Positions 7,130 through 30,932 of a stretch of DNA of 32,933 nt are shown one piece after another. The position numbers were made by a program, and so were the translations under genes. Location: positions 1 to 32,933 of the forward strand of contig JABJFP010000114.1 of the NCBI GenBank assembly GCA_018662715.1, in the 5' to 3' direction. The first letter of the stretch is position 1; the number at the start of each line of letters is the position of its first letter. Source of the stretch: Methanobacteriota archaeon (GTDB taxonomy: Archaea; Thermoplasmatota; Poseidoniia; Poseidoniales; Poseidoniaceae). A model generated the notes under the pieces. That model did no database searches and was not told the DNA's origin. It saw only the letters and a program-made list of their open reading frames with translations.

Positions 7130-7154
7130 GACCCGAACAACGAGAGAGGTGATA

Positions 7155-8171
7155 TCAACTCTTCGTATCAGGAGTGTATCCTTTACCTGATTCCCTAACG
7201 AGTCCGAGGATTTTCTGATCCAATACAGACAGAGCGAGGTTTGATGGATTGCGTCCTGTTTTCTGACTCTGTTCAGTTGATACAAATACGTGGACATTCA
7301 TTGCTCTATGGCTCAATTTGTGGGAAACTATACCAACAAAATCGTCGTCTCCGTTTTTGCCAGGTTTTTGTCCTTCAATGAGTTGCGGCCCCCACAATCC
7401 CCCAAATAGACCGTCCTGTTTTCGCTGATGTATGACAGGATTACCATCAGCGTCAAATTCAACGCATGTCCAAAGTGTGATTTCTTTGACTTTGGTCTTC
7501 TTTGGCTTTGGATAGTTCGTAGCCGTTTCTCTTCCAAGACATGAGGAGTTGACTGGGCAGAGATGACATTGAGGTTTTTTGGGCGTACATATCGTTGCCC
7601 CGAGTTCCATTAAGGCCTGATTCCAGTCACCGGGACGTTGCCGAACGAGTTGTTCGTCAGCCCATGATTGAACCTCTTTATTCGAGGGTTCGGTCATCTG
7701 ATGTTGCCTTGCCATCACGCGCCTAATGTTGCCGTCAACACAGGCAAATGGTTGACCAAAGGCGATGCTCGAGACCGCTGCGGCCGTGTAAGGGCCGATT
7801 CCGGGGAGTGACAAAAGAGCATCACGAGATGATGGAAGTGAGCCGTCAAAGCCTTCTTTTGACGACGGCAGCATGACGAGTTGACTCAAGGCGTGAAGAC
7901 GACGCGCTCTGCTGTAATATCCGGCACCCTCCCACGCTTTGAGCACCTTGTCAACAGAGGATTCAGCCATGGATTGAATCGTTGGAAATGTATCCATCAT
8001 TCGTTTCCAATAGATCAGTCCCCGGCTCACTTGGGTCTGTTGTAACAAAATCTCACTCAGCAAAATAGCCCAAGGGTCGTCGGTTTTACGCCAAGGTAAG
8101 TCCCGTTGATGCTCGTCGTACCACTCAAGCAATTTTTCTTGTGAAAGGCCACTCAAGGCAACCACACTCAC
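7155..8171 (-). CDS. mutY: A/G-specific adenine DNA glycosylase (MutY)
   Basis: HhH-GPD signature (LPWRKTDDPWAILLSEILLQQTQV; PGIGPYTAAAV). A 4Fe-4S cluster loop is present: C-x6-C-x2-C-x5-C (CTPKKPQCHLCPVNSSC). The C-terminus has a Nudix-like domain. The GTG start overlaps the upstream gene's TGA stop (GTGA). Confidence 0.9.
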   Translation of the reverse strand: MSVVALSGLSQEKLLEWYDEHQRDLPWRKTDDPWAILLSEILLQQTQVSRGLIYWKRMMDTFPTIQSMAESSVDKVLKAWEGAGYYSRARRLHALSQLVMLPSSKEGFDGSLPSSRDALLSLPGIGPYTAAAVSSIAFGQPFACVDGNIRRVMARQHQMTEPSNKEVQSWADEQLVRQRPGDWNQALMELGATICTPKKPQCHLCPVNSSCLGRETATNYPKPKKTKVKEITLWTCVEFDADGNPVIHQRKQDGLFGGLWGPQLIEGQKPGKNGDDDFVGIVSHKLSHRAMNVHVFVSTEQSQKTGRNPSNLALSVLDQKILGLVRESGKGYTPDTKS

Positions 8172-12069: not shown

Positions 12070-12089
12070 ACGCTTCTGAAGAGAAGCGT
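12070..12089 (+). terminator. Perfect 8-bp hairpin downstream of tbp
   Basis: ACGCTTCT-GAAG-AGAAGCGT begins 18 nt after the tbp stop and ends immediately before the TGATG at 12090-12094. Confidence 0.4.
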
Positions 12090-12091
12090 TG

Positions 12092-15000: not shown

Positions 15001-15628
15001 TGCACTCAATGATTTGGAGGGATTAACCATCGTCTGGGACGTTGATATTGAATTTGATAGTAATGAAGATGGTATTCTCGACAACGACGCTGACATCATC
15101 GGTAAGACCGTCACCTATACGTTCCGTAAAGCAGGAACTCAATCCATCAAAGTGATGGCATGGGATGAGGACCCACAGCGACCGGGAACCAAAGTCATCA
15201 CGTTCGCTGTAGCTCCTGCCGATCGTACAGCATTGGAAAATATCGGGGCTTCGTTGGCTGGAGAAGATGCAAATCCAATGATGCAAGGAGGATTGCTCGT
15301 AGTACTGCTTGGACTTTTGTTGATGTTCTCACGACGAAAATCAAAATCCGGAGAAGAAGAGATGTGGGGTGATGTATCTCAGAGCTTGATGGTTGAAAAT
15401 AATGAATCCCGCGAGGATGCACTTGCTGAAAAGCGTCCAAATTCTCCACCGCCAGAATATCTATTCCAAGTAGCCCTAGAAAATGCGCCGAAGACCATTG
15501 GGGTACACGCTTCACCTCCTGCTGATGGAAACGGCCCTCCGTTACCTGAGACTGGACTTCCCGAAGGGTGGACCGCCGAACAATGGTCTTACTACGGCCA
15601 ACAGTGGCTGGAATCGCAGAATCCGTGA
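12092..15628 (+). CDS. Giant type-I surface protein A: novel N-terminal domain, CARDB domain, multiple PKD-like Ig domains, TM anchor, cytoplasmic tail
   Basis: Signal peptide with an RR (SSRRSVFVPGLMAALLLVTMIP). CARDB-like segment (LEIEVSFNNRG...ADPDGINSADANPSNN). Repeated PKD-type endings (GTHKLVYHVTDNDGAHTSEVLTVEVLN and others). TM helix GGLLVVLLGLLLMF (about 15278-15328). The 99-aa tail contains PPPEY, GPPLPE and GLPEGWTAEQWSYYGQQWL. Alternative start ATG 12119; the track start 12089 is a TTG. Confidence 0.85.
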   Translation: MVSFSPAFSMGSSRRSVFVPGLMAALLLVTMIPLEHPVLEESSTVLHSGGYDPGVSDVPTWRIGDRWIYSGTFDPTILVTDTGVDATVGEIQGDTTSEVTAISMQNVDNMSVLAYTLRSSANFDKSGVSLEGFSGNVYIEYTQTEYLRVSDLSPIRSDLDMYIRFVPSGISFLEQILGDITISTTYSPVNENYDFPLRANERWTTMTTSYVQWSGQSDYITPFPPPVTETNTTTWVVSDVGRPTNSFGQSTDYGGCNGSYEMVSYNSEGDSEGYRWYCPEVGNYAWLHTEDDIGLTIDFRLKRYDPVGASGVDPYSNPGSRDSCLEVNPERSITALNTPMQVWVNASSSCFTNPSGVNLELHHEHEGIVKSLTTAANGSAWTTIDIGDARDSSDSQTDYASHGLVAKSGSFVGASTVTLDQYLVGLDVFADAEAAQILRNRSGVITPLNALSGYNVLPGDDLEIEVSFNNRGITASTATEAVITLPGGLTNKVPLPALETYQVHKVALNWTVPITAEIGTQSLMWEADPDGINSADANPSNNLAIIDLFVGRVPTPVVNGSSGLTNEYILLDASESFDEDGGNVSCKFNVPFDDGSRTWSTLKVLSPDCILNYSWIDDGSYPVEITVIDEERDEVNLTVMVDVLNRAPLLEVRSARTEAMVEYPITLYAYANDSDSEDVWPGVVDIYWPGANCKEGYYTRTCTTTSTKEGWNTFTAVGLDDDSTMATATIDIRFTNIKPHSVNIQLVDQNGPILMDAQNTWHVTEDQLVLVKGQAQDSIDDIDELTHTWWPDDAQPSLIRTFDGRTSEFDMIWHEAGLHKMRLEITDSEGESSGVEERWISVANIAPSIEPLAQILPIAEGQSISVSGTSSDSSSDQETLIRCWDIDPSMDSNDIGSADDDCDVIGDNLTISWNRSGTHKLVYHVTDNDGAHTSEVLTVEVLNTPPLIRTANVACVAYEPCTLDAQSTIDALNDLEGLTIVWDVDIEFDSNEDGILDNDADIIGKTVTYTFRKAGTQSIKVMAWDEDPQRPGTKVITFAVAPADRTALENIGASLAGEDANPMMQGGLLVVLLGLLLMFSRRKSKSGEEEMWGDVSQSLMVENNESREDALAEKRPNSPPPEYLFQVALENAPKTIGVHASPPADGNGPPLPETGLPEGWTAEQWSYYGQQWLESQNP
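15554..15610 (+). other. Conserved W/Y-rich cytoplasmic tail motif, copy in protein A
   Basis: GLPEGWTAEQWSYYGQQWL, 7 residues from the C-terminus. It matches the protein B copy at 15 of 19 positions. Confidence 0.8.
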
Positions 15629-15675
15629 AGCGGCAGGGGACACTTCCTAAAGTATGAGAACACCCACGACGATGC

Positions 15676-18600
15676 ATGAACCGAGATATGTGGAAGGCTG
15701 CCTTCGTCGCCGTTTTGTTTCTTCTCACTCCGATGCTAAACCATGTCGGCCCTGCAACCATCCTCTCCGAGGATAACACTCCCGATAACAGTTCGACTGG
15801 AAACCTCTCAGTGGTTGATGTCCCCAATTACAGAATTGGTGATAAGTGGGTGTATGAGACGAAATTTGACGTCGCACAACTGATCGCCCAAGCCAATGTC
15901 TCTGCATCCCTCAACACACTGACAGGAGATACGGTCAACACGGTCACTGACATCCTCTATGAAACCGACGAAAACGGCAAGTCTGTTCTTGTGTACGAAA
16001 TCACCATTGACGGCTCGTTTAGTTCCGGTAATAGTGGGGCGACTCTTGAAGGAACGAGTGGACGGTTGGAAATTGATTACGATGGAACCGACATCATCCG
16101 AGCAAGAGACCTGGCGACGAGGGAATCCAATTTCAATTTGGATGTTACATTTGCTCCTTTTAACCTCGGGTTTTTGAGCTTCACATTGGCTGATATCAAC
16201 TTTGATAACAGTTACACCCCAGCCAAAGAAACCCATGATTTCCCACTTCGAAACGGCGACCAGTGGTACATGCCCTTCCGCGCAGACACAGTGGTAACAG
16301 GTACGTCTGATTATTTTGACCCGTCGGAATTTGATGGAGGTGGACCCGAAAACTATTCATGGCAGGTCATCAAGAATGATGCCCCCAGTGAAGATGGAGA
16401 CACACCGCAATATTTGGGCTGCGACAATTCATACAAAATCTCAGAATGGAATGAATCAGGAGTCAATACCGGATTCAACTGGTACTGCCCCGATGCCCGA
16501 GGAAGCGCCTGGAACCGAATCATCAATCCAGCAGGATTTACCATTGATTGGATTTTGAAAACGTACAACCCAAGTGATTCAAACAGTGTCATTCCAGCCT
16601 CTTCGCCGGGTGGGCGAAACACCAACCTCAATGTAGCAACGGCCTACTCCGCAACCCTTCCGGACTCCACTGAAACCATTACCGTTGATTACAACGTTGC
16701 AGGCTCACCACCAAATCCGATAGCGAATACGAACCTGCAATTGCGCTATGAAATCGCTGAAACGATCCTTAACCCAACGACGGACCAGAATGGAGTAGCT
16801 CAAATTTCACTAAATGTATCCAACATGACCGACACAACGCCAAGTAGCGACGACCATACCAGCAACGGAGTTGTTGTTTACGACCCGGCTGCAAAAATCG
16901 TCGGAGCCGCTACTGTTGTTCAAGACCTCAGCGTTGTAGGAATTGACCTCATTGCCCAGCCCTCATCAGTCATCGTGGAACGCACAAGAGGGGGTGTCAC
17001 GACAACGCTAGGGGCATCGATTGGCTACAACGCATTACCTGGAGACATGATGATGTTCTCATTGCCCGCTCAAAACCGAGGTGTACTCACATCTCCAGCA
17101 ACCTACATGGAAATTGAGACTCCTGATGGAGTCACATACCGAGAGCCATTAACAGCCATTGGACCGTACTCAGAAGAGCGAGTCATCGTCAACTGGGCAG
17201 TCCCTGAGGAACTAGCAGTGGGAGTTAAGAATCTCAAATTCACTGTGGACCCAGACATGAACGTGACCGCCGATACCAACAAGACGAACAATGATGCTAC
17301 CATTGGAATTTTCATTGGTCGCGCCCCAACCGCTCTTTTTGAGGCAAGTGAAGGAAATTACACTTTTGAAAATGTCACCCTCAACGCTACAGGTAGTTAT
17401 GACGAAGATGGCGGAGAAGTCGATTGTGTCTTTGAGATTGAGTCTCGTGTTGGGCTCATCGATGTTATTGAGGCACCTGATTGCTCCACTCATTGGAACT
17501 GGTCAAACAGCGGCACATGGTCTGTCACGGTCATCGTCATCGACGGTGAATTGGACATTGATGAACTTCAAATTGATGTTGTCATCTTGAACCGGGCACC
17601 TAAATTCAACCTTTCCCATGATGCGACTGTCCCCGTGGAGCAATCCATTACCATCAGTGCAATTGACATTCAAGATATCGACACATCGTCCCCAACTGGG
17701 CAGCAGGTAACCATCTCATGGCCAGGATTGGAATGTACGGAAGGGTTGACCCAGCCCACATGCACGTTCATTCCCACAAGCGAAGGGCCCATGAATATCA
17801 CAGCCATTGCAACCGATGACGATGGTGCCACAACAACGGTAACCAGCCCATTGGACGTGTTGAACATCCCACCAACAATTGGTTTCCCAGAATTATGGAC
17901 CGGTGGGGAACAACTGTTGCAGGACGCAAATGGTACCTGGCACCTTGACGAAGACGAAATCGCATTGCTCCGAATCGTAGCCGACGATACGAGCAATGAC
18001 CAAGGCACGCTCATTGTAGAATGGCTTCCCTCTCTTGCCGATGAAAACTGGACCGTCACCAGCGTTGGAATCTCCTCATCTGAAGCCGTTGCATGGACAA
18101 CATCTGGAATCCATACGTTAAACGTCCGAGCAATTGACAGCGACGGTGCAACATCGGCAACTCAAACTGGCGAGGTTTTGATTCACAACGTCGCTCCCAC
18201 CGTCACAGGATTGCCTGGAAATACTCCGGTGTTTGAAGAGGACAACCTCTCTTTAGAAGTCGTTGCAAGCGATACGGCCTCTGACATTGACACCTTGGAG
18301 ATTTGCTGGGACTTTGACGCCACGGCTGACTTGGATAATGACGGAACTAAGGATAACGATTGTGAACTTACAGGAGCATCAATTTCCAAGTCATGGTCAA
18401 CAACTGGTGTCCGTTGGATCACCGTCACTGTCACCGATGACGATGGAGCAACTGCAACTCAATCGATGAATGTCAGCGTACTCAATCTGCCACCAACTGC
18501 AGTCATCACGCTCGGCACCCTTGCTGATAATCTCATGGAGGGAGATAACCTGACCTTGGACGGAACTCAATCTGTTGAGACAGCGGGTGACAAAACGACT

Positions 18601-19272
18601 CTTATCTACCAGTGGGATGCTTCTTTCTTGGACACCGATTTGGATGGTAACAAGGTCGGAGATGTTGACCACCTCGGCGGAACATGGACCATTGAAGACC
18701 TTCCTGCAGGAACATGGAACATCATACTGACCGTTACCGACGATGATGGTGAATTTCAAACAACAGAACTCTCATTCGTGGTATCAGAAGCGCCTTCTGA
18801 AGGATTGTTTGAGAGTATATCCGACACCGTAGGGACGACCATGACATATGTCATCTTTATATTGGGAATCGTGATTGTTGGGCTTGTTGCCTTCTTGCTG
18901 TTTACAAGAAAGCGGCCCAGTGACGAACTCAAGGGATTCTCTGCCTTCGAACAGCCCTTTGAAGCACCACCAGTCGCTGCAGCCCCGGCCCCGGTAGAAG
19001 CCGCACCACAACCAACATCGTACGCACCGCAACCCGCTGCCGCTGTTGCTGAGCCAATCTATCAAGCCCCAGAACCGGTTAACACCGGCCCACCGATTCC
19101 AGCAACCGGACTTCCTGAAGGATGGAACATGGAACAGTGGAATTACTACGGAGAACAATGGCTAGCAGCAAATGCTGCACCAGCACCGGTCCAACAACCC
19201 ATAGTTTCTAACCCTGCACCAGCACCTGCCTCAACGGAGCTACAATCGTTGTTGGACGATCTCGACTTTTGA
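15676..19272 (+). CDS. Giant type-I surface protein B (paralog of A): same N-terminal domain, CARDB, PKD-like repeats, TM anchor, P/A-rich cytoplasmic tail
   Basis: Signal peptide MNRDMWKAAFVAVLFLLTPML. Blocks colinear with A: DVPNYRIGDKWVY, ATLEGTSGRLEIDY, HDFPLRNGDQW, GCDNSYKISEWNESG...WYCPDARGSAW, TIDWILKTYNP. CARDB segment (...DPDMNVTADTNKTNN). PKD-type units (TGVRWITVTVTDDDGATATQSMNVSVLN and others). TM helix TYVIFILGIVIVGLVAFLLF (about 18835-18903). The 122-aa tail contains GLPEGWNMEQWNYYGEQWL and ends in LLDDLDF. Confidence 0.85.
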   Translation: MNRDMWKAAFVAVLFLLTPMLNHVGPATILSEDNTPDNSSTGNLSVVDVPNYRIGDKWVYETKFDVAQLIAQANVSASLNTLTGDTVNTVTDILYETDENGKSVLVYEITIDGSFSSGNSGATLEGTSGRLEIDYDGTDIIRARDLATRESNFNLDVTFAPFNLGFLSFTLADINFDNSYTPAKETHDFPLRNGDQWYMPFRADTVVTGTSDYFDPSEFDGGGPENYSWQVIKNDAPSEDGDTPQYLGCDNSYKISEWNESGVNTGFNWYCPDARGSAWNRIINPAGFTIDWILKTYNPSDSNSVIPASSPGGRNTNLNVATAYSATLPDSTETITVDYNVAGSPPNPIANTNLQLRYEIAETILNPTTDQNGVAQISLNVSNMTDTTPSSDDHTSNGVVVYDPAAKIVGAATVVQDLSVVGIDLIAQPSSVIVERTRGGVTTTLGASIGYNALPGDMMMFSLPAQNRGVLTSPATYMEIETPDGVTYREPLTAIGPYSEERVIVNWAVPEELAVGVKNLKFTVDPDMNVTADTNKTNNDATIGIFIGRAPTALFEASEGNYTFENVTLNATGSYDEDGGEVDCVFEIESRVGLIDVIEAPDCSTHWNWSNSGTWSVTVIVIDGELDIDELQIDVVILNRAPKFNLSHDATVPVEQSITISAIDIQDIDTSSPTGQQVTISWPGLECTEGLTQPTCTFIPTSEGPMNITAIATDDDGATTTVTSPLDVLNIPPTIGFPELWTGGEQLLQDANGTWHLDEDEIALLRIVADDTSNDQGTLIVEWLPSLADENWTVTSVGISSSEAVAWTTSGIHTLNVRAIDSDGATSATQTGEVLIHNVAPTVTGLPGNTPVFEEDNLSLEVVASDTASDIDTLEICWDFDATADLDNDGTKDNDCELTGASISKSWSTTGVRWITVTVTDDDGATATQSMNVSVLNLPPTAVITLGTLADNLMEGDNLTLDGTQSVETAGDKTTLIYQWDASFLDTDLDGNKVGDVDHLGGTWTIEDLPAGTWNIILTVTDDDGEFQTTELSFVVSEAPSEGLFESISDTVGTTMTYVIFILGIVIVGLVAFLLFTRKRPSDELKGFSAFEQPFEAPPVAAAPAPVEAAPQPTSYAPQPAAAVAEPIYQAPEPVNTGPPIPATGLPEGWNMEQWNYYGEQWLAANAAPAPVQQPIVSNPAPAPASTELQSLLDDLDF
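19108..19164 (+). other. Conserved W/Y-rich cytoplasmic tail motif, copy in protein B
   Basis: GLPEGWNMEQWNYYGEQWL, preceded by GPPIPAT (A has GPPLPET). Confidence 0.8.
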
Positions 19273-21248: not shown

Positions 21249-23072
21249 TCATTCAACGGTGACCGACTTGGCCAGATTCCTGGGCCTATCGACATCCTTG
21301 CCAAGACGTACAGCTGTCCTGTACGCCATCAATTGAAGAGGAAGTACCGTAAGTAATGGAGTCAACCAAGGATGAATTTTGGGGATTGCAATTGAAATAT
21401 CGCCTTCCTCAGCAATCGCGTCTCCTTTTTCATGGATCAGGATTATCTTCGCACCTCGGGCCTTGCATTCATGTATTGCGAGGAGGGTTTTTTCCTTCAA
21501 ATGGTCACTGGGTGCAACAACAACAACCGGACTACCATCTTCGAGAAGAGCCATGGGTCCATGTTTCATTTCGCCCGCTGGATATGCAAGGCAGGGAATG
21601 TAGGCCAGTTCCATCAGTTTCAATGCGCCTTCCTTGGCTACGGGGGCTGAAAGGCCACGACCCAAATACAGCACTGACTTTGCTTGAGCGAGAAGGTCTA
21701 CGGCCTCATCAATCGGGCCGACATCTTCGAAGTAGGCCTCCATAAGATGTGGGGCCTGTTGGAGTTGTTGAATCAATTCACGGCCTTGTTCTTTGGACAT
21801 ATTGCGGCTACGCCCAAGTTGCATTGAAAACACGGTTAACGCTCCAACCATGTTTGTGAAGGCTTTTGTTGAGGCTACCGATTGTTCAGGCCCCGAGTGG
21901 ATGTAAACGCCTTGACCGCAAAGGCGAGCAATTGTTGAACCGACGACATTGACGACTCCAAAGACTTGCCCTCCCTTCAATTTTATTTCTTTGATTGCGG
22001 AAATCGTATCGGCCGTTTCTCCTGATTGAGAAACAGCGAGATAGATCGCTTTTGTATTGATGATGGGGTCGTTATTCCTGTATTCGCTCGCGATGTGGGT
22101 TACTGCTGGTATACGAGCCATTTTTTCGATGAGCATTTGACCGATCTCTGCAGCAAATGCAGCGGTTCCACATCCAAGCAATCGGACGTGAGGTGCTTGG
22201 ACAAGAGTAGAGTGAGGTAAACGCATACCACCCAGCCTCCCAGTGCCCATTTCTCGATCGACCCTGCCGGTGATGCAATGCCTGAGCGCATCGGGTTGTT
22301 CGTAAATTTCCTTGTACATGTAGTGGGGAGCATCACCAAGCTCGGATTCAGCCCATGAATCTTCAAGTGTCTGAACATTCGTTTGGATGGAGCGGCCCTG
22401 TTTTGAAGCAACTTTGATGGAATCTCTTGTGATTGTCGCCATGTCTCCATCCTCAAGGTAAACCACATGTTGGGTGTGCGAGGTCAGTGGATGAGGGTCA
22501 CTAGAAACAAACATCTCACCTTTTCCTTGCCCTATGATGAGAGGGGACCCGTTACGTGCACAGACCAAGAGGTCATGGTCATGGAACATAACACAGATGC
22601 CCCAAGTGCCTCGGACACGTTTAAGCATTCTACGGACCGAATCCTGAGGGGTTGCGCCAGCCTCCAATTCAAGCCCGACCATATGGGCAAGGACCTCTGA
22701 ATCTGTTTCACTCTTGAGTTCAATTCCCTTGGCGATAAGTTTCGCCCGAAGTAAACGAAAATTTTCAATGATGCCGTTGTGTACGAGGAGGACCTTGCCA
22801 TCGTACGAAGCATGTGGATGTGTGTTCTCCTGTGTCACTCCTCCGTGAGTAGCCCAGCGTGTGTGAGCAATACCCATCGTTGAATTTGCTTCAGCGGGCA
22901 ATACCTGCTTCAAATCATTGACCTTTCCAACAGTCTTGTGAACGCTAATGGATTCTCCATCATGGAGTCCCACTCCAGTAGAATCGTATCCTCGGTACTC
23001 CAAGCGCCTTAATCCCTCAACCAATATGGGCAGCGAACGTTGATGACCAATATATCCAAAAATACCGCACAT
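21249..23072 (-). CDS. glmS: Glutamine--fructose-6-phosphate aminotransferase (isomerizing)
   Basis: N-terminal nucleophile MCGIFGYIG. Two SIS domains (SQSGETADT). C-terminal ...LAKSVTVE. Length 607 aa. A GAGGA motif overlaps the upstream stop codon, 6 nt before the ATG. Confidence 0.97.
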   Translation of the reverse strand: MCGIFGYIGHQRSLPILVEGLRRLEYRGYDSTGVGLHDGESISVHKTVGKVNDLKQVLPAEANSTMGIAHTRWATHGGVTQENTHPHASYDGKVLLVHNGIIENFRLLRAKLIAKGIELKSETDSEVLAHMVGLELEAGATPQDSVRRMLKRVRGTWGICVMFHDHDLLVCARNGSPLIIGQGKGEMFVSSDPHPLTSHTQHVVYLEDGDMATITRDSIKVASKQGRSIQTNVQTLEDSWAESELGDAPHYMYKEIYEQPDALRHCITGRVDREMGTGRLGGMRLPHSTLVQAPHVRLLGCGTAAFAAEIGQMLIEKMARIPAVTHIASEYRNNDPIINTKAIYLAVSQSGETADTISAIKEIKLKGGQVFGVVNVVGSTIARLCGQGVYIHSGPEQSVASTKAFTNMVGALTVFSMQLGRSRNMSKEQGRELIQQLQQAPHLMEAYFEDVGPIDEAVDLLAQAKSVLYLGRGLSAPVAKEGALKLMELAYIPCLAYPAGEMKHGPMALLEDGSPVVVVAPSDHLKEKTLLAIHECKARGAKIILIHEKGDAIAEEGDISIAIPKIHPWLTPLLTVLPLQLMAYRTAVRLGKDVDRPRNLAKSVTVE

Positions 23073-23081
23073 TGAAATTCC

Positions 23082-26000
23082 TCATAGGTCAAATGCAGTC
23101 GAGCAGATTGGACACTTGATTCGTTTTAACATCAAATCTTTGACGGTAAACGCCGCATTACATTCTGGACATTGGGCATCCCGCTTTAGTTCAGGTAGAG
23201 GCATACCACCTGGAAGAGGGAGTTCACCGGGTAAGGGGAGTGGTGGGAGTTGTCCCGGAAGCGGAAGTTCGCCAGGCAAGGGCAGCGGAGGTAATTCGCC
23301 CGGAAGTGGGAGTTCGCCAGGCAAGGGCAGCGCTGGAAGTTGGCCGGGGAGCGGCATGGTTGCTACCATCTCTTGCACTTCTCGCCGTTGTTTCCTCTCC
23401 ATACGGCGTTGAAGACGAGCATTTCCTTCACCGTCTTGCACTTTACGTTCCAACTCTTGAGAAAGAGTTGGGTCTTCAATAACAAGTTCATCCTCCATGA
23501 CCGCACTCATTGAATCACCTACAACAAGGACTGAATCTTCACTGTCTACCGAGAGGAGCGGCCCATCATCGTGTTCGGGCTGAATCATGAGTTCAATAGC
23601 GTCTTGGTGGCCTTCCGATACAAGTACAGCGTCGTTTTCTTTGGAATGCGAACGTCTTACTGCAACAATAACACCAACCAAGAAGAGGCTGATGGTGAGG
23701 ATTGCCCCTGCAAGAATGAGACGTTTTGTTGCATCCGTCCCGGGTAGTGGCCCAAGGAGTAAATCAAGTATTGTGCTTGATTCAATCGAGTCTTGGTTTC
23801 CGGCAAGAGACGCTTGCTTGTAGAGCGAGAACACTCCGTTTGTGGAACTCGAACACAGTAATGTGTCCTCTTCCATGGAGCCTATACCGAACAGAATACC
23901 GTCAACGAGTAGATTCGATAGGCCCTTTACGGCTTGCCCATCCTCGTCAGCCACGAGGCCCCAGCGCACAACTGGGCCGTAATAATTGGTTTCGTCATGG
24001 TAAAGATAAACTCCTTCAGAACGCACTTGAAGATGAACTGAAGTTGCACCAGGCGAGAGGAGGTGGTTCGGTTCATTGATCGACCATACCGAATCGGTCA
24101 CCGCAGAGACGACCCTGGCCGTCCTTCCCATGCCCTCAATCCAAGCCCCAACCAATCGGTCTTCTCCATCAACAACAATGACTTCTAACGCAGCTTCGCC
24201 TACATGATCTCCGACAGATGACTGGAACGTCCACGAAGATTCTGTAAATTCGCCATGCGTATACATCAATCCAGCTCGTTTTATGCCGGTAACATCTTCT
24301 CTGTATTCGTGGTAGAGAATGTGAAGGTATTCGTTACCTAAAGCCACGCTAAGTGCGCTTGAATCGGCGTTGCTAATGTCCACATTTGCAAGGACCGTGA
24401 CGGCATTACCCCATGAAGTACCTCGGTCCGGAGTTGATGATGATAGAACAAAAATCGATGTAATGTCTTGCCATGAGCCACCTGTTGAAAGGTCTCGATG
24501 ATATCCAGCCAGAACCATCGTCCCATCGTATTCATCAAACGTAAAGCCATGATACGTGCCTTCTGTGAGTTTCAAAGGTTGCATGTGATAGTGCTTAGCG
24601 GTTGTTTTTCCAGCGGCAGAGATTGACGTCATGGCAATATCTGTCAGCGTGTAACCTTCTGCATTGATGCTACGACGGCTCCATGCCGCTTGGACCAAAC
24701 CATCATCCCGTTGGTAAACGGCTAACTCTCCACCCCAATCGTTTTCGAGCAGAATATCGCCTGGCATTGCAAGGGATGAAGAGATTGTACGGACATGAAG
24801 TTCTCCGTCCCGAGTTGTAAAGAGCAATCCTCCGTCAGGGAGTCCCACGAATTCAAGTGGTGTTTCTTTTGTAGCCAATGAAAGTGGGGATTTTGATCCC
24901 CCTAGATCGAAGTACCCAACTGTGACATTGAAATACAGTTTACTATGCTCAAATTCAACTCCTGAACCCGTGAGGGTTGCTCGGTATGAAACCACTCCTG
25001 GCTCGGAGACCATATCGGCAAACCGAGCGATGCTAGACCCGGAACCTGTTTCCGAACCCGGTACAAGGGTTAGGGTTACATCATTAGGAGAATCAATAGC
25101 AACATAGAGTCCGGTTTCATAATCTTGCTTCGCAAGACTTACTTTGAGGTTGGTTGCTTGTGTTTCACCAAGGTTATCCACTCGGATGTTGATATCAAAA
25201 GGAGCATCAGGGGTTGGGATCACAGGATTTAATCGGGCAGAACCAGGCAAAAAGCGGAGCATAGGTTCAACCGGACGTTCATCGATTTGGAAGGAAAACG
25301 TGTAGGTGTTATCTTCAGGTTTGGGATCGTTTTGTGCATCGGAGGGGTCAATTAGGACACTAACCTCATGGGAGCCCGCTTCAGTAGCCCACCAATACAG
25401 GGTGGTCTGAACCGATTCCCCTTTGGCAAGGCTGGTGATGTCATCAAAAGATGGGTATGTGGCCGAGTCCTCCCCTGGCCCGTCTAATCGGACATAAATG
25501 TCGTTTGCATCCAAATCTCCGCTGTTGCGGATTTCGAAACGAATTTCAAGAATTGAACCTTCCAAAGCAGAATTCACCTGAAGGCCATCGTCAAAAACCA
25601 CCGGTGCTCCCGTAAAGGAGAAGTCTGGGGATGGAGGGATATTGTCTACGATATACGAACGCATGGAAATGTTGCTTTTGAGCCCAGAGGCATTGAGTGC
25701 CCGGATCTTGATGTCCACTTGTCCATCATCAGAAGCGGTTGAGTCCCAATTGAAGTACCAGTTTACGCTTTTTCCGTCTTCATTGGCAACATCAGTTCCA
25801 AATGTCCAATCTCCACGATCAATTTTGAACTCAATGCGCTCTGCCTCAGTTCCCTCAACCATGCCTGTAAATTCAACAAGTCCTGATAATTTCGTCCCTA
25901 ATGAGGGGCCTGTGAAGTTAATGCCCATGTCTACAATAAGATTCTCATCTGTCACTTCCCCTCCACATTCATCGGCACCTAAAACAAAATCAAGGGCGCA

Positions 26001-27731
26001 AGCAGCATCTACAAGTCCAAAGCCCCATTTGTCATTCCAACGGTCAGAAACAGATGGCTCAGATGCAATTGGTTCACCTGGCTGACTCCTTGACTCGGAT
26101 GAATTTCGTAGAATGTCTTTTATTTCCTCGGGGGTGAGTTCACTATCTGCTTGAAGCATTGCGGCAACGATTCCGGAAACAACTGGCGTAGCCATACTGG
26201 TTCCGCTCTTTGAGTCGTATTCATTATCTGCAAGTGGCCTGTCTGGCTGGCCGGGAATACTTGTACCAATTGCTGCTGAGGCAGAAATAATGTTGCTACC
26301 AAAGGCCGTGATGTCAGGTTTTAATTCATCCCAATCATCATCGTCTCCATCATCCAAACGAGGACCATAATTACTGTAATCTGCGAGGACATCATTCGTT
26401 CTGTTGACTGAATTTCGGTCATCTACGGAACCTATTGAAATCGCCCCATCAGCACTGGCTGGAGATGGTACCCGTTGATTTCCGTCATTCCCCATGGCTA
26501 CGATGCATGCGATTCCGTTCGTAGTTGCAGTATTAACGAGACGAGCCTCAGCCCCTGAACCATTATCTCCATCATCATCTGGATTGAGAGGCGAGGAGAC
26601 TGAACCAAACGACATTGAGGCGACATCAATACCCTTTGCAGAACCGTTACCCGGCCAATCTGTGTCCTTATTGTTAATCATCCATTGCATTCCGCTAATG
26701 GATGCTTGTGAGTTTGTGCCGCCGGAATCAGTGAGGACCTTGATATCAACAAGATAGGCTCCCATTCCGGTTCCGGTGTGTTCGCGATTAGAACCGCCTG
26801 TCCCAATCGCAGTTGCTGCGACGTGAGTGCCGTGGCCTTGCCCGTCATCTGGGTCATCCGTCCCATCGTTGTTTGAACTTGCAGATGTCGCATCGAATCC
26901 AGCGACCCATTTTTGATCATCATAGCTGGTGGCATCACCATCGGGTTCATCGCCCAAATCATCAAAATCGTTGAGAGCACGGTGTTCGTTATCTACGCCG
27001 GTATCCAAGACAGCCACAACGACTCCCACACCGTTATAGCCACGCTCATATGTGCTGTTAGAGTAAGTGTCAGAGGGCATCGACTTTGCTGCTTTGGATG
27101 CGACTCCATTGAAGGGAACCATCACGTTTTGCATTTCGATGACGACAACCCCTTGGAGGTGGTAGATATCCATGAGTGCACTCACAGGAACCTTGTCCAG
27201 AACCACCGCATCGAGGGAATCCAAGACCTGATACCAAGCACCTCGGTCTTCTCCAATCCAGCCATGACTCTCAAGAACTCGTTCTAAATCCTCAAGTTCC
27301 TCGGCTTGTGGCCTCCAAGCATAATCAACGACAATGGCCACAGTCTTTCTCCCATCATCACCGATGATGGACGTTGGAGAGATGGACTCTTGGCCGCTAA
27401 TGACACGCTGTAGGCGGTCATCCATTCCGTTCCAATCCAAATCGGGACCGTAAGCAAGCCACCACATCGAGTCTTCTGATGATGCACGGTCACCTCGGTC
27501 AATCATGCGTGTTGGACGCAAGCAGAGTTCTTCGTCGCACATCAATGGAGGAAGAGAATCAATCAGAATTGGGTCTGTAAAACCGACCTCTTCATCCGCC
27601 GCAGGTTCTTGAGCAAGGGCCATCCCGCTAACATCAGCAATTAAGACGATGAGAGCAAACAAATATGCGGCTCTGCGGTGCGAATTTGTTGCAGAAGATG
27701 TTCTCTCCATTCGCCTCACTATTTCTTGCAT
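23082..27731 (-). CDS. Giant membrane-anchored subtilisin-like (S8) serine protease with CARDB-like domains, C-terminal TM anchor, and a cytoplasmic proline-repeat tail ending in a zinc ribbon
   Basis: The catalytic triad sits in the canonical context: VAVLDTGVD (Asp), GHGTHVAATAIG (His), SGTSMATPVVSGIVAAM (Ser). Signal peptide with an RR (SHRRAAYLFALIVLIADVSGMALA). CARDB-like segments are present (EIRNSGDLDANDIYV...IDPSDAQNDPKPEDN). There is one Asp-box-like TPDRGTSW. TM helix LILAGAILTISLFLVGVIVAV (23658-23720). The tail is 191 aa. ATG 27731 is preceded by a G7 tract 5 nt upstream; the track start GTG 27758 is less likely. Confidence 0.9.
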   Translation of the reverse strand: MQEIVRRMERTSSATNSHRRAAYLFALIVLIADVSGMALAQEPAADEEVGFTDPILIDSLPPLMCDEELCLRPTRMIDRGDRASSEDSMWWLAYGPDLDWNGMDDRLQRVISGQESISPTSIIGDDGRKTVAIVVDYAWRPQAEELEDLERVLESHGWIGEDRGAWYQVLDSLDAVVLDKVPVSALMDIYHLQGVVVIEMQNVMVPFNGVASKAAKSMPSDTYSNSTYERGYNGVGVVVAVLDTGVDNEHRALNDFDDLGDEPDGDATSYDDQKWVAGFDATSASSNNDGTDDPDDGQGHGTHVAATAIGTGGSNREHTGTGMGAYLVDIKVLTDSGGTNSQASISGMQWMINNKDTDWPGNGSAKGIDVASMSFGSVSSPLNPDDDGDNGSGAEARLVNTATTNGIACIVAMGNDGNQRVPSPASADGAISIGSVDDRNSVNRTNDVLADYSNYGPRLDDGDDDDWDELKPDITAFGSNIISASAAIGTSIPGQPDRPLADNEYDSKSGTSMATPVVSGIVAAMLQADSELTPEEIKDILRNSSESRSQPGEPIASEPSVSDRWNDKWGFGLVDAACALDFVLGADECGGEVTDENLIVDMGINFTGPSLGTKLSGLVEFTGMVEGTEAERIEFKIDRGDWTFGTDVANEDGKSVNWYFNWDSTASDDGQVDIKIRALNASGLKSNISMRSYIVDNIPPSPDFSFTGAPVVFDDGLQVNSALEGSILEIRFEIRNSGDLDANDIYVRLDGPGEDSATYPSFDDITSLAKGESVQTTLYWWATEAGSHEVSVLIDPSDAQNDPKPEDNTYTFSFQIDERPVEPMLRFLPGSARLNPVIPTPDAPFDINIRVDNLGETQATNLKVSLAKQDYETGLYVAIDSPNDVTLTLVPGSETGSGSSIARFADMVSEPGVVSYRATLTGSGVEFEHSKLYFNVTVGYFDLGGSKSPLSLATKETPLEFVGLPDGGLLFTTRDGELHVRTISSSLAMPGDILLENDWGGELAVYQRDDGLVQAAWSRRSINAEGYTLTDIAMTSISAAGKTTAKHYHMQPLKLTEGTYHGFTFDEYDGTMVLAGYHRDLSTGGSWQDITSIFVLSSSTPDRGTSWGNAVTVLANVDISNADSSALSVALGNEYLHILYHEYREDVTGIKRAGLMYTHGEFTESSWTFQSSVGDHVGEAALEVIVVDGEDRLVGAWIEGMGRTARVVSAVTDSVWSINEPNHLLSPGATSVHLQVRSEGVYLYHDETNYYGPVVRWGLVADEDGQAVKGLSNLLVDGILFGIGSMEEDTLLCSSSTNGVFSLYKQASLAGNQDSIESSTILDLLLGPLPGTDATKRLILAGAILTISLFLVGVIVAVRRSHSKENDAVLVSEGHQDAIELMIQPEHDDGPLLSVDSEDSVLVVGDSMSAVMEDELVIEDPTLSQELERKVQDGEGNARLQRRMERKQRREVQEMVATMPLPGQLPALPLPGELPLPGELPPLPLPGELPLPGQLPPLPLPGELPLPGGMPLPELKRDAQCPECNAAFTVKDLMLKRIKCPICSTAFDL
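23103..23171 (-). other. C-terminal zinc-ribbon motif of the S8 protease
   Basis: CPECNAAFTVKDLMLKRIKCPIC (CxxC-x15-CxxC), 6 residues from the C-terminus and on the cytoplasmic side of the TM anchor. Confidence 0.7.
23190..23357 (-). repeat. In-frame proline-rich tandem repeat (PLPGELP units; 45-nt / 15-aa super-period)
   Basis: Encodes MPLPGQLPALPLPGELPLPGELPPLPLPGELPLPGQLPPLPLPGELPLPGGMPLPE. The 22-nt string agttcgccaggcaagggcagcg occurs twice on the plus strand (23266-23287 and 23311-23332). Confidence 0.9.
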
Positions 27732-27827
27732 GACAACCCCCCCTTTGAGCCTATCCACTTTTGGGGCTTTGATGATATGGTATCAAGTCACCGGAAAAGC
27801 CATCCAAAAAGGAGCGGAATTCCATCC

Positions 27828-28916
27828 TCAAGACGGAGGCCATTCAAAATGTGAACTTGATGCAGAACACTGCAACCGAGGACCTGATTGTCGCTCTACT
27901 AATCCCAAGGCGCCGTTGCATGTTGGACATGACCCTGCATCAGCAATGTGCTCCATCCAAGCCATCCGTGTTTCGGGTTCGTCGCCAGCTTGAAGTAAAT
28001 TTTTGAAAGGCTCCCGCAGGTGTTTTGGAATGGCGATTCCACGTTCAGTCCACGGGTCTGTGAGTTCATCAAGAGCGATCATTGTGGCTTTCATCTTGCG
28101 AAGCCTTGCCGAGACTGCATCTTGGCCACTCGGACCTCCATCAATCACTCCGAGTTCAACGGGACCTCCGCGAGCAATGAATGGCAAACAGGCATAAGCA
28201 GCAACAAAGCCACCAATGTGTGCCATGTGTGCGATGCCGCTGGATTGCCCTGAATCCATTGTTGAAAGTGCGCGAATGAGTTCCATTCCAAAGTACAGTA
28301 ATGCAATAAAAACAACTGGCCAAGGCCGAATCAAAAGGAGAGGGAATGGAATTTCATCCTTTGGCCAACCTGAAAGGTAAGCCCCTAGGAGGCCAAATGC
28401 GGCCCCTGATGCACCGAGAGCCATGGTGGTTGAACCTGCATTAAACACCGTCCAGCACAACGAGCCGCCGAGGAGGCCAACAAGGTAAACACAGGCAAAT
28501 CGGCCCCTCCCCAAACGCTGCTCCAGTGGAACTCCAACCAAGGCAAGAATAATGACATTGCCAAGAACGTGGGTAAGGTCACCTTGGCTGTGAAGAAATC
28601 CTGCTGAAATTAAGGTGTGCCAAAAGTTTGGAGTTCCTGTCGTTCGTGCAGGAACGAGGACAAAATCTGACCAAACCCAATAATAAACAATATCCCATGA
28701 AGCGAGAAGAGCCCATAATACCTGAACTATCGAGCCAAGGAGAACGCTGACCGTGATTCCCATTGCCAACGAAGTATCGGTCCTGAATGCATATACAATC
28801 GGAATCGTAATGGCCATCATCCACAGAACCAAAACGGACAATTCCGCTGGACTGAAGACGCTCACGGCAAAGGCCATGGCTACCGCTTGAGGTGGTCCTC
28901 TTTGGAGTTGATGCAT
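27828..28916 (-). CDS. Rhomboid-family intramembrane serine protease with a C-terminal soluble extension of about 110 aa ending in a zinc-ribbon-like motif
   Basis: Rhomboid signatures appear in order: FLHSQGDLTHVLGNVII (H-x4-H-x3-N, TM2), ALGASGAAFGLLGAY (GxSG catalytic Ser, TM4), HMAHIGGFVAAY (catalytic His, TM6). One extra N-terminal TM is present. ATG 28916 is preferred because the track's TTG 28961 lies 5 nt from the divergent gene. ATG 28877 is also possible. Confidence 0.85.
   Translation of the reverse strand: MHQLQRGPPQAVAMAFAVSVFSPAELSVLVLWMMAITIPIVYAFRTDTSLAMGITVSVLLGSIVQVLWALLASWDIVYYWVWSDFVLVPARTTGTPNFWHTLISAGFLHSQGDLTHVLGNVIILALVGVPLEQRLGRGRFACVYLVGLLGGSLCWTVFNAGSTTMALGASGAAFGLLGAYLSGWPKDEIPFPLLLIRPWPVVFIALLYFGMELIRALSTMDSGQSSGIAHMAHIGGFVAAYACLPFIARGGPVELGVIDGGPSGQDAVSARLRKMKATMIALDELTDPWTERGIAIPKHLREPFKNLLQAGDEPETRMAWMEHIADAGSCPTCNGALGLVERQSGPRLQCSASSSHFEWPPS
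27849..27929 (-). other. C-terminal zinc-ribbon-like motif of the rhomboid protease
   Basis: CPTCNGALGLVERQSGPRLQCSASSSH (CxxC-x16-C-x5-H). Its first knuckle, CPxCN[AG]A, is the same as in the adjacent S8 protease. Confidence 0.5.
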
Positions 28917-28966
28917 GATTCCAAGCGAATAGGAGGGTTCATCCTTGACCCCCAAGTGCAAGAGCC

Positions 28967-30190
28967 ATGGCGAGGACCCTTGTTGAAGCGGTCGGTATCG
29001 AAGTTCGTCGCGGCATGGGTGTTGTGTTATCCAATCACCACCTTGAATTGAATCAGGGCGACATCATGGTCTTAGAAGGGGCAAACGGTTCGGGAAAATC
29101 TACCCTCATCGAGGCCGTAGCGAGACTTCTCCCTCTGGAAAAAGGGCATATCTCCCACGGTGAACATCTGGTTGTAGACCACGAAGGGCGCCGAAAACCC
29201 TCGCCGTTAAATGTCTCACTCGTCCTTCAAAAAAACGGATTGCTCGGCTGTGAGCGAGTTCAAGAACATCTCGATATCGCCATGAGAATGACCGGCTCAA
29301 CGATTGATTCAACACACTTTCTTGAGGCCTTTTCCCTCACCCATCGTGCCAGTGACAACATCTCGAACTTATCCCAGGGTCAGGCAAGAAAGGTCGCTGT
29401 ACTTTCAGCACTCCTTCCCGCATTTGCAAGTTCTGAACCCTGTATTGTCCTCATGGATGAGCCCGATGCCGGTTTAGATGACCGTTCTATGGACGCTTTA
29501 TGTGGCTGGATTACCGAGTTGAATCATCTCGGACACGGCCTCATCATCAGTACGCATGATGAGCGAATAAAGTCACTAGCTACGGTCCGACATCACCTCC
29601 CGGATGGAACCACTACTGCCGTTCAAAATGAGAACCATGAAACCAAGTTATCTCCTCAACGACCGAATTCCCAACAAACACAAATTACACCGGGGCAATT
29701 CGGCTGGAACATGCAATGGCGGACTTTAGCATGGTTGAACCAAAATGCAATGGCTGCCCTACTGACTTTGGGAATTCTTCTTTCTTTAGGGGAACTAAGC
29801 GATAACCTCACTGAAATGCAGCAACTTGGCTTCATTTTAGCCCCAGCCTTGGCCGCTGGATTATGTGGTGATGCCATGGTGGCCATGTGTCGCGAGGAAC
29901 GAACTGCATCTTGGTGGTACTGCGTAGGTACTGGAACTCCTCACTCGGGAATGTTGCCTTTCCTCCTGGGTGGAGGCATTACGCTCCTGTCAAGTATCGC
30001 TCACACTGGCAGCATTGAATTGAACACAATGGTGATTGGAGCCATATTGACCGGATGTGTCGCTCACCTACTTAGATTCGCACAACAAAGTACAGAACGC
30101 CTTGCCCGCCCGCAGGCTGTATTCATTGGCCTGCTCACACCTGTTCTGATTTTGCCATATGCATTGTTATTGGATCTGTTGACCCGTTAA
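28967..30190 (+). CDS. ccmA: ABC-transporter ATPase (CcmA-like heme exporter subunit) fused to a C-terminal multi-TM domain
   Basis: Walker A GANGSGKST. Signature LSQGQARKVAV. Walker B IVLMDEPDAGLD. H-loop ISTHD. Residues from about 245 to 407 contain 4-5 hydrophobic helices. The CcmA assignment rests mainly on ccmC and ccmD following directly downstream. Confidence 0.7.
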   Translation: MARTLVEAVGIEVRRGMGVVLSNHHLELNQGDIMVLEGANGSGKSTLIEAVARLLPLEKGHISHGEHLVVDHEGRRKPSPLNVSLVLQKNGLLGCERVQEHLDIAMRMTGSTIDSTHFLEAFSLTHRASDNISNLSQGQARKVAVLSALLPAFASSEPCIVLMDEPDAGLDDRSMDALCGWITELNHLGHGLIISTHDERIKSLATVRHHLPDGTTTAVQNENHETKLSPQRPNSQQTQITPGQFGWNMQWRTLAWLNQNAMAALLTLGILLSLGELSDNLTEMQQLGFILAPALAAGLCGDAMVAMCREERTASWWYCVGTGTPHSGMLPFLLGGGITLLSSIAHTGSIELNTMVIGAILTGCVAHLLRFAQQSTERLARPQAVFIGLLTPVLILPYALLLDLLTR

Positions 30191-30230
30191 CACAACCACC
30201 TTCAAGAAGGGCGGCCATCCCCATTAAACC

Positions 30231-30932
30231 ATGAAGATGAAGGTCGGAGAGGCTCTCCTACTCTTCGGATTCATCGGCATTGCTACAACGATGTTGCTTG
30301 CATTTTTGTGGGCTCCAAGCGTATCCATCAACGCCTTTGAGTCACCAGCCGCACAGCGAATTTTTTACTGGCACGTCCCATCAGCATGGGCTGCATTTAT
30401 CGCATTTGGAGCCCTTTTTGTTGGTTCAGTAGGATGGATGTTCAAGCGTTCAGAACTGATGTGGAGGATTCACATCGCAGGAAGCGAAGCTGGCTTAGCC
30501 ACCGGCCTGATGACCGTCTGGTCGGGTTGTGTCTGGGGGGCTGCAGAATGGGGGACTCCTTGGGATTGGAGTGATGTAAGATTGAACACTTTTGGCCTAC
30601 TTACGCTTCTTGCTATCTATCTCGTATTGGGGCGAAACAGTCAACCGGATGGGGTTGAAACTCGAGATACATTTGCTGCATTCGGACTCTATGGATTCAT
30701 CTTAGTTCCATTCACTTATGTCGCCACTCGGATATGGTCCATCCGCCACCCGGGACCGGTCATCGGTACTGATGACGGAGGTTCACTCAACGCGGACATG
30801 GGGCTCATCTTGCTGTTTGGGACCCTTTCATTCACATTGCTCATCTTCGGGCATATGCTCACATCAATGCGAATAACTTCGTTTGAACAACGCATTGAAG
30901 CACTTCAAATTCAATTGGATGGAGGAAAATAA
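30231..30932 (+). CDS. ccmC: Heme exporter / cytochrome c maturation protein CcmC
   Basis: Trp-rich WWD motif WGAAEWGTPWDWSDVRLNT. Conserved His context YWHVPSAW. Six TM segments, 233 aa. Confidence 0.9.
   Translation: MKMKVGEALLLFGFIGIATTMLLAFLWAPSVSINAFESPAAQRIFYWHVPSAWAAFIAFGALFVGSVGWMFKRSELMWRIHIAGSEAGLATGLMTVWSGCVWGAAEWGTPWDWSDVRLNTFGLLTLLAIYLVLGRNSQPDGVETRDTFAAFGLYGFILVPFTYVATRIWSIRHPGPVIGTDDGGSLNADMGLILLFGTLSFTLLIFGHMLTSMRITSFEQRIEALQIQLDGGK

Follow-up and report, generated by a model that had tools for sequence, protein, structure and literature searches.

A conserved rhomboid–subtilase gene pair in Marine Group II archaea as a candidate intramembrane protease and its anchored substrate

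The window analyzed here is a 32,933-nucleotide stretch of DNA (contig JABJFP010000114.1 of assembly GCA_018662715.1) from a Poseidonia-like archaeon of Marine Group II-a (MGIIa); the closest relatives of its rhomboid carry the annotation Poseidonia or Poseidoniaceae, which corresponds to MGIIa. On the minus strand of the window, a gene for a rhomboid intramembrane serine protease is followed by a gene for a giant, membrane-anchored subtilase of the S8 family (hereafter S8) and then by glmS, which encodes glutamine--fructose-6-phosphate transaminase. We propose that the rhomboid and S8 may form a dedicated protease–substrate pair, a reading to which we give a probability of roughly 45%, and that S8 can reasonably be put forward as a candidate substrate, which would be the first natural one for any archaeal rhomboid. 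The original prediction, made from the letters of the window, held that the rhomboid processes the anchor of its neighbor. Conserved adjacency, compatible membrane topologies, and a parallel arrangement in outgroup archaea speak for this core idea, whereas three of its accompanying elements, a LAGA patch at the anchor, a single operon, and the membership of glmS, did not hold up.

In the proposed mechanism, the rhomboid, with its active site facing outward, would meet an S8 molecule that has been exported by its signal peptide and is held in the membrane by one helix with the N-terminus outside and the C-terminus inside (Nout-Cin). The rhomboid would cut in or just outside this transmembrane (TM) helix, freeing an ectodomain of ~1,300 residues that comprises the S8 domain, the CARDB domain, and an uncharacterized C-terminal region. 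The stub left in the membrane would keep the conserved tail, with its basic motif and zinc ribbon. Such a pairing would follow a logic analogous to that of single-target rhombosortase systems.

Conservation of the gene pair in Poseidoniales

The original prediction proposed to look for the rhomboid–subtilase adjacency in other genomes, and we found it across Poseidoniales, in both MGIIa and its sister group MGIIb. The MGIIa set was drawn from a scan of GTDB species genomes in which the best 80 of 322 matches were inspected, with rhomboid identities ranging from 99% to 55%; neighbor counts cover the loci with room on the contig. S8 follows the rhomboid on the same strand in 74/74 MGIIa species loci, and the adjacency also occurs in two further MGIIa lineages. 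Likewise, glmS follows S8 in all 57 loci that could be counted, and a divergent ABC gene lies ahead of the rhomboid in 73/73. The entire nine-gene block of MGIIa (NMD3, CcmC-like, ABC / rhomboid, S8, glmS / KaiC-like, Maf) is 100% syntenic, housekeeping genes included. Because of this block-wide synteny, the MGIIa adjacency is by itself uninformative about the rhomboid–S8 pair, and the discrimination rests on five MGIIb loci.

These five loci came from an exhaustive search of representative genomes, in which the full-length rhomboid orthologs at 37–44% identity belong to Thalassarchaeaceae (MGIIb); a scan of IMG/VR for additional MGIIb loci returned none. The rhomboid is followed by S8 in 5/5 loci, and the MGIIb S8 proteins are true orthologs that have both the TM helix and the terminal ribbon. 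The flanks are less constant. Every MGIIa locus, and four of the five MGIIb loci, has the ABC/CcmC-like module next to the rhomboid; the fifth (L172) lacks it upstream. Downstream, glmS directly follows S8 in two MGIIb loci (L086 and L171), and two others (L085 and L087) lack it there. The remaining locus, L172, has a glmU-like gene (14985..16199; nucleotidyltransferase and hexapeptide repeats) between S8 and glmS, and the resulting S8–glmU–glmS run hints at a link of the S8 surface protein to UDP-GlcNAc supply. Of the links in the block, rhomboid–S8 alone is kept intact across the five MGIIb loci, which are a small sample. The role of glmS as a fixed member of the unit, as first envisaged, is contradicted by its absence in L085 and L087 and its displacement by the glmU-like gene in L172; glmS is a neighbor, neither a constant member nor functionally required for the rhomboid–S8 pair.

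A parallel arrangement in outgroup Thermoplasmatota

A metagenome scan with a rhomboid alignment (A4) relied on the generic GASG motif; among the matches listed, about 10 of 80 loci belonged to the correct subfamily, and the others were set aside. The distant Thermoplasmatota rhomboids share with the window rhomboid a plan of one plus six TM helices and a zinc-ribbon-like C-terminal module (ED.PEVR.AWLE.F....CP.C....C.C). No S8 gene stands beside the orthologous rhomboid in the non-MGII Thermoplasmatota loci examined. In 7 of 10 informative loci (L088, L089, L090, L092, L094, L173, and L174, with the rhomboid near position 8001 in most), the rhomboid gene starts 4–20 nt inside the 3′ end of a gene for a secreted enzyme with a lamin-tail domain (LTD), in some cases CARDB, and a PLDc_2 domain. 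L173 carries P0140, which is the closest non-MGII relative of the window rhomboid among the matches listed. The PLD-type partners are 469–1,285 residues long (the L088 partner being taken as the open reading frame 6601..8010), and every one of them ends in a conserved YKN-TM-(R/L)DWR(K/R)R anchor with no tail after it. This signature may be an undescribed C-terminal sorting signal. In L098, a different protein that ends in a TM helix and RREEE is encoded 98 nt upstream of the rhomboid, and in L091 and L096 the rhomboid has no TM-anchored partner. A signal peptide peptidase (SPP) gene lies convergently downstream of the outgroup rhomboid in most loci.

The gene overlaps indicate that these outgroup rhomboids are translationally coupled to an anchored exoenzyme. 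The strongest comparative evidence that rhomboids of this subfamily may act on their neighbors is this change of partner: the outgroup enzyme is not homologous to S8 and lies elsewhere relative to the rhomboid, yet it shares the membrane topology of S8. The PLD–rhomboid–SPP cluster also suggests that lineages other than bacteria evolved, or retained, the rhombosortase logic. As a separate observation, a small protein encoded in L088 (9719..10216, minus strand) has the C-terminus ..GIPGFELIPLFIATLIVIFYLRRKRSR, which resembles the PGF-CTERM signal of archaeosortases; in these outgroup genomes, then, the rhomboid coexists with another system for processing anchors.

The rhomboid protease

The gene identities and the order of the co-directional trio, as originally read, are borne out by the sequence and by profile matches. 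The rhomboid scores 83.3 bits with Pfam PF01694 (cut-off 22.6 bits; E = 2.6e-23; MEROPS S54 class). Its reading frame spans 27828..28961, with a TGA stop at 27830..27828, in agreement with the predicted gene; the start, formerly placed at 28916, is more likely the methionine M29 at 28877, a start conserved in homologs. The GASGAAF motif is present as quoted. The serine of GASGA, the histidine of AHIGG, and the H..HVLGN (HxxxN) motif in TM2 are invariant in alignments A1, A2, and A4, which span close relatives down to sequences ~26–31% identical, and the rhomboid is predicted to be catalytically intact.

An AlphaFold (AF2) model of moderate quality (mean pLDDT 70) contains seven membrane helices (residues 23–45, 50–73, 114–135, 137–159, 168–181, 199–222, and 225–248), and the predicted plan is one additional helix before a six-helix core (1+6). 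A Foldseek search of the PDB with this model gave E. coli GlpG as the top matches with a probability of 1.0; the best 23 matches are all GlpG or iRhom (probability 0.99–1.0, TM-score of ~0.6 on the target). The zinc-ribbon-like C-terminal domain is modeled confidently (pLDDT 82–88) with a β-hairpin, and its residues C330, C333, C350, and H356 are invariant in A1. We infer from the homology to GlpG and from the basic loop after TM2 that the C-terminus would be cytoplasmic and the active site would open outward, which is the orientation required for a Nout-Cin substrate.

The giant subtilase, its anchor, and its tail

S8 matches Peptidase_S8 (PF00082) with 159.1 bits (E = 1.9e-46) and CARDB (E = 8.9e-11), with a weak match to Zn_ribbon_4, and the triad motifs VLDTGVD, GHGTHVA, and SGTSMATP are intact in its translation. 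The predicted ATG at 27731 is present; the true start may be this codon or 27710, given an SD-like (Shine–Dalgarno-like) GTGAGG before 27710 and a locus (L003) without the first ATG. The ~500 residues after CARDB have no Pfam or PDB relative, and a PDB sequence search with residues 611–1337 found none. A Kyte–Doolittle (KD) hydrophobicity scan detected two segments only: a signal-like stretch at residues 21–39 (..ALA/QEP) and the TM helix at ~1338–1358. The anchor quoted in the original prediction, KRLILAGAILTISLFLVGVIVAV, is present in the translation. RRSHSK follows the helix directly, and then comes a tail of 191 residues in which the proline repeats (PLPGELP) and the terminal zinc ribbon (CPEC..CPIC) are found as described. 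By the positive-inside rule, S8 would be a type-I (Nout-Cin) single-pass membrane protein, and its topology and that of the rhomboid are predicted to be compatible for cleavage. The type-I plan, including a TM helix at the equivalent position, is kept in all 61 orthologs checked (56 complete MGIIa and 5 MGIIb); the anchor is conserved as a feature, not as a sequence. An LPG located ~8 residues ahead of the helix is near-invariant in MGIIa, not in MGIIb.

The tail is conserved across the order, where it varies in length from 125 to 195 residues. Its basic motif, GEGNARLxRRMxRKQQRE, is near-invariant across MGIIa, and a CxxC..CPxC ribbon closes every S8 ortholog with an intact C-terminus, in MGIIa and MGIIb alike (conservation 0.66). 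This ribbon has sub-threshold matches to Zn_ribbon_4 (E = 0.004–0.008) and MJ0042_CXXC (E = 0.0025). The tail is clearly under selection. Profile searches gave no match of the tail to a DNA- or RNA-binding family, and an NCBIfam search for models of C-terminal sorting signals (CTERM) gave no match in the S8 tail or in the outgroup PLD proteins. A requirement that the zinc ribbons of the rhomboid and S8 work as a matched pair was considered and rejected, because the outgroup partners have no tail.

The intergenic regions and transcription

Direct reading of the sequence returned the two predicted gaps, 96 nt between rhomboid and S8 (27732..27827) and 9 nt between S8 and glmS (23073..23081); with the S8 start at 27710, the former becomes 117 nt instead of 96 nt. 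The shorter spacer reads CTATGAGGAATTTCAATG and bears the GAGGA that had been reported, so placed that the glmS ATG lies 9 nt past the S8 stop with GAGGA ahead of it. This arrangement fits a shared transcript of S8 and glmS, which is probable for MGIIa.

The longer gap was studied for transcription signals in a comparative alignment. The T5 run past the rhomboid stop is replaced in one MGIIa clade (L062, L064, L066, L071–L076, and L079–L081) by a strong GC-rich hairpin, CTCCCCAAGCCCCTAAAGGGGCTGGGGAG, within the first 60 nt after the stop (z from -3 to -6). In 78/79 MGIIa loci, the first 200 nt past the rhomboid stop contain the pattern GATAnnnT[CG]AAA, whose background rate is 0.0014 per 200 nt; the MGIIb loci do not have it there (0/5). 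The element lies ~45–55 nt ahead of the S8 start in most lineages. Its copy in the window, GGATAGGCTCAAAGG, is probably an S8-specific promoter or a regulator-binding site and is put forward as a candidate for either. A general promoter consensus of the form GGATAG..TCAAAGG was rejected, the element being unique in the 33-kb window. A scan of 27600..29100 for sigma-70 promoters and intrinsic terminators, using models not suited to archaea, found nothing beyond the shuffle expectation. Terminator-like signals and a cis element that is strongly conserved both lie in this gap, so that transcription of the rhomboid and S8 is probably separate rather than from one operon, and their expression is probably uncoupled. 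A single operon of rhomboid, S8, and glmS is at odds with the T5 run or hairpin and the cis element in the gap, as well as with a three-gene order that is broken in MGIIb (L085 and L087).

Table 1. Features of the rhomboid–S8–glmS region, all on the minus strand (positions of the window)
Feature	Position	Strand	Basis or remark
glmS (glutamine--fructose-6-phosphate transaminase)	21249..23072	-	full length; TIGR01135, 671.7 bits vs cut-off 418, E = 1e-201
Giant type-I membrane-anchored S8 subtilase, 1,549 residues (predicted topology)	23082..27731 (alternative start 27710)	-	profile and motifs
Terminal zinc ribbon of S8, CPECNAAFTVKDLMLKRIKCPICSTAFDL (CxxC-17-CPxC)	23085..23171	-	sub-threshold profiles and conservation
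PLPGELP proline-rich repeats in the S8 tail	23190..23360	-	translation; low conservation, 0.37–0.5
Conserved cytoplasmic tail motif of S8, ELERKVQDGEGNARLQRRMERKQRR, residues 1426–1450	23382..23456	-	conservation peak of 0.78 amid a variable tail
Single TM anchor of S8, LILAGAILTISLFLVGVIVAV, residues 1338–1358, proposed rhomboid target	23658..23720	-	hydrophobicity scan
CARDB domain of S8, residues 716–811	25299..25586	-	Pfam
S8 catalytic domain, residues 235–551	26079..27029	-	Pfam coordinates; most conserved part, column conservation 0.8–0.9
Rhomboid–S8 intergenic region	27732..27827	-	holds the T5 run and the conserved element
Conserved element, GGATAGGCTCAAAGG	27742..27756	-	pattern conserved in MGIIa; unique in the window
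T5 run, 18 nt past the rhomboid stop	27806..27810	-	direct sequence reading
Rhomboid intramembrane serine protease gene	27828..28877	-	likely 349 residues; mechanical reading frame to 28961; conserved Met start in homologs
Rhomboid C-terminal domain, DEPETRxAWMEH...CPxC...C...H, zinc-ribbon-like	27831..27983	-	invariant Cys/His; model
Catalytic His codon in AHIGG	28218..28220	-	direct sequence reading; His invariant in homolog alignments
Catalytic Ser codon in GASGA	28407..28409	-	direct sequence reading; Ser invariant in homolog alignments

Alternative readings

Several observations weigh against a dedicated protease–substrate pair. Beyond the uninformative synteny of MGIIa and the probable uncoupling of rhomboid and S8 expression, the target itself is variable: column conservation is low around the S8 helix (~0.5), and the TM and juxtamembrane segments are among the least conserved regions of the protein. 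The small-residue LAGA patch, on which the original prediction had relied, is not conserved as a sequence; what persists is a general enrichment of the outer half of the helix in G, S, and A (2.9 vs 2.0 residues in the inner half; Wilcoxon p = 1.4e-4 over 56 distinct TM helices, in a test that ignores phylogeny); this pattern equally suits GxxxG helix packing or dimerization. The tail, with its near-invariant motif and zinc ribbon conserved order-wide, argues that the anchored form of S8 has a function of its own. The tail also gives S8 a geometry unlike that of the GlyGly-CTERM proteins and the outgroup partners, both of which are anchored at the extreme C-terminus. In addition, subtilases can shed themselves autocatalytically. 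In a rival account, the adjacency is inherited synteny, with the rhomboid acting on other substrates, or on orphan or misfolded TM proteins, and with S8 either staying anchored, its tail working in the cytoplasm, or being released by autoproteolysis or another protease. Bacterial GlpG-type rhomboids serve such quality-control roles, the block that is syntenic in MGIIa includes unrelated housekeeping genes, the rhomboid–S8 gap probably carries separate transcription signals, and S8 combines a poorly conserved helix with a strongly conserved tail. We consider this account possible, though short of probable, for it must explain why rhomboid–S8, alone among the links of the block, stays intact throughout the five MGIIb loci even as the flanks on both sides rearrange, and it is hard to square with outgroup rhomboids that appear translationally coupled to another C-terminally anchored exoenzyme.

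A functional link could also exist without simple shedding. The rhomboid might control the turnover of the anchor or of the stub, or regulated intramembrane proteolysis might free or degrade the tail as a signal that couples extracellular proteolysis to cytoplasmic regulation. The near-invariant GEGNARLxRRMxRKQQRE motif and the terminal zinc ribbon of all S8 orthologs would suit such a role, and the conserved cytoplasmic zinc-ribbon domain of the rhomboid could dock cytoplasmic partners. We nonetheless find this quite unlikely: a cut near the outer leaflet would not by itself release the tail from the membrane, as the C-terminal fragment would retain the greater part of the helix and would need a further step to be freed; the rhomboid ribbon cannot depend on a tail partner, as the outgroup partners have none; and the tail matches no DNA- or RNA-binding family. 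Very improbable, in our estimate, is a three-gene unit that unites the rhomboid, S8, and glmS in a single operon and gives them a common function, for example the glycosylation-linked maturation of a surface protein. The 9-nt spacer with its GAGGA, the presence of glmS after S8 throughout MGIIa (57/57), and the glmU-like gene between S8 and glmS in L172 all fit it, and deletion of a Haloferax rhomboid reportedly affects S-layer glycosylation. Yet L085 and L087 lack glmS, the gene of a universal housekeeping enzyme, after S8; normal S8 and rhomboid genes persist in MGII lineages whose glmS is located elsewhere; and the 96-nt gap has terminator-like and promoter-like features. The proposal that the rhomboid processes S8 as its dedicated substrate draws on the unbroken MGIIb link, the compatible topologies, the outgroup parallel, and the small residues in the outer half of the helix, a pattern that also suits helix packing.

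Other anchored proteins and neighboring genes

The original prediction had named the anchors of three further window proteins as candidate substrates. Two of these, protein A (PKD/CARDB) and protein B (PKD), are encoded on the plus strand at 12089..15628 and 15676..19272 as tandem paralogous giant PKD/CARDB surface proteins, each with a C-proximal TM helix. The third, encoded at 654..3230 (plus strand), joins a lamin-tail domain, an amidohydrolase domain, a linker of eight GGTDN repeats, and a C-terminal TM anchor; this layout of an LTD and an anchor also occurs in the outgroup PLD partners of the rhomboid. All three proteins end in a TM helix and basic residues. Beyond a hydrophobic stretch and basic residues, no juxtamembrane or TM motif is common to their anchors and that of S8, or to each other's, which lends no weight to the suggestion; the sequences offer nothing for or against these proteins as rhomboid substrates. 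The cytoplasmic tails of A and B share a motif of their own, TGLPEGWxxEQWxYYGxQWL.

Divergently from the rhomboid, the region 28967..30932 (plus strand) carries genes for a CcmC-like protein (Cytochrom_C_asm) and for a fusion of an ABC ATPase with a membrane domain, which together resemble a heme-export module. The module also occurs in L081–L087 and L171, and in related loci it is followed by a small open reading frame of 49–80 codons.

Significance

Marine Group II ranks among the most abundant planktonic archaea, and its S8 subtilases are regarded as extracellular protein-degrading enzymes (PMC6864105). Whether S8 is cell-bound or shed changes who benefits from the products of hydrolysis, and it changes how "free" and "cell-bound" exoenzyme activities in seawater are to be read. 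Archaeal rhomboids have no confirmed natural substrate (PMC11985538), and a pair that is conserved order-wide and has a parallel in sister lineages provides a concrete candidate. A broader idea, which we consider unlikely as it stands, is that the zinc-ribbon rhomboids of Thermoplasmatota are a previously unrecognized archaeal counterpart of sortase-like systems, each dedicated to a neighboring anchored exoenzyme: in most lineages an enzyme of the PLD type, in MGII the giant S8. The MGII cut would then decide between a cell-bound and a released subtilase, and the tail left behind would report the event inside the cell. If this sortase-like reading were true, the rhomboid cut would govern whether the main extracellular subtilase of MGII enters seawater.

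Comparison with known systems

We found no link of rhomboids to Marine Group II or Poseidoniales in the literature searched, and the nearest points of comparison come from other lineages. E. coli GlpG and other bacterial rhomboids with six TM helices (MEROPS S54) share with the window rhomboid the fold, the Ser-His dyad, the HxxxN motif, and an active site toward the outer leaflet. Sequence identity is only ~20%, the window rhomboid has a predicted 1+6 plan with a cytoplasmic zinc-binding domain at its C-terminus rather than its N-terminus, and its gene adjoins that of a candidate substrate. Within archaea, Rho1 and Rho2 of Haloferax volcanii (HVO_1474 and HVO_0727) are likewise rhomboids implicated in cell-surface biology, and their natural substrates are still unidentified; a 2025 study lists substrate identification as future work (PMC11985538). 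They belong to another lineage and have no reported conserved neighbor that could be a substrate, in contrast to the MGII rhomboid, which has a specific, testable candidate.

Archaeosortase A and its PGF-CTERM targets represent an archaeal system that processes the C-terminal TM anchors of surface proteins, and a PGF-CTERM protein is encoded near the outgroup rhomboid of L088. The enzyme family is unrelated, and PGF abuts a TM helix at the extreme C-terminus, whereas the LPG of S8 lies ~8 residues before a helix that is followed by a long tail. Closer to the window, the outgroup cluster of an LTD-CARDB-PLD gene, a rhomboid, and a convergent SPP gene involves the same rhomboid subfamily and a large secreted CARDB hydrolase on a Nout-Cin anchor. 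There, however, the partner lies upstream and overlaps the rhomboid start, is PLD-type instead of S8, and ends in YKN..TM..RDWRKRQW at the extreme C-terminus, with SPP convergent downstream; the window has none of these features.

The closest analogy is offered by rhombosortase (RrtA) and GlyGly-CTERM proteins, in which secreted hydrolases carried on a C-proximal Nout-Cin TM helix, such as subtilases, trypsin-like proteases, and nucleases, have a protease of the rhomboid family as their partner. The GlyGly-CTERM targets include S8 subtilases and nucleases, and a single target gene adjoins the rhombosortase gene in 16/21 genomes (Haft and Varghese 2011; PMC3237569); in Poseidoniales, the rhomboid and its candidate target are likewise adjacent, in 74/74 MGIIa and 5/5 MGIIb loci. 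Experiments have shown that rhombosortase cleaves the protease VesB (PMC6219818). The two systems also differ. The host of the window genes is archaeal, and the window rhomboid has an extra N-terminal TM helix and a C-terminal zinc ribbon. It gives no match to the rhombosortase model TIGR03902 at E ≤ 1, and the outgroup rhomboid of L090 reaches 43.9 bits against a cut-off of 84. No Gly-Gly motif marks the S8 anchor, and the 191 residues behind it form a conserved tail, whereas GlyGly-CTERM ends in a few basic residues. Membership of the window pair in the rhombosortase family was rejected on the grounds that neither TIGR03902 nor any CTERM model matches. By analogy, the rhomboid and S8 of Marine Group II resemble a dedicated pair of the rhombosortase type that stands outside that family.

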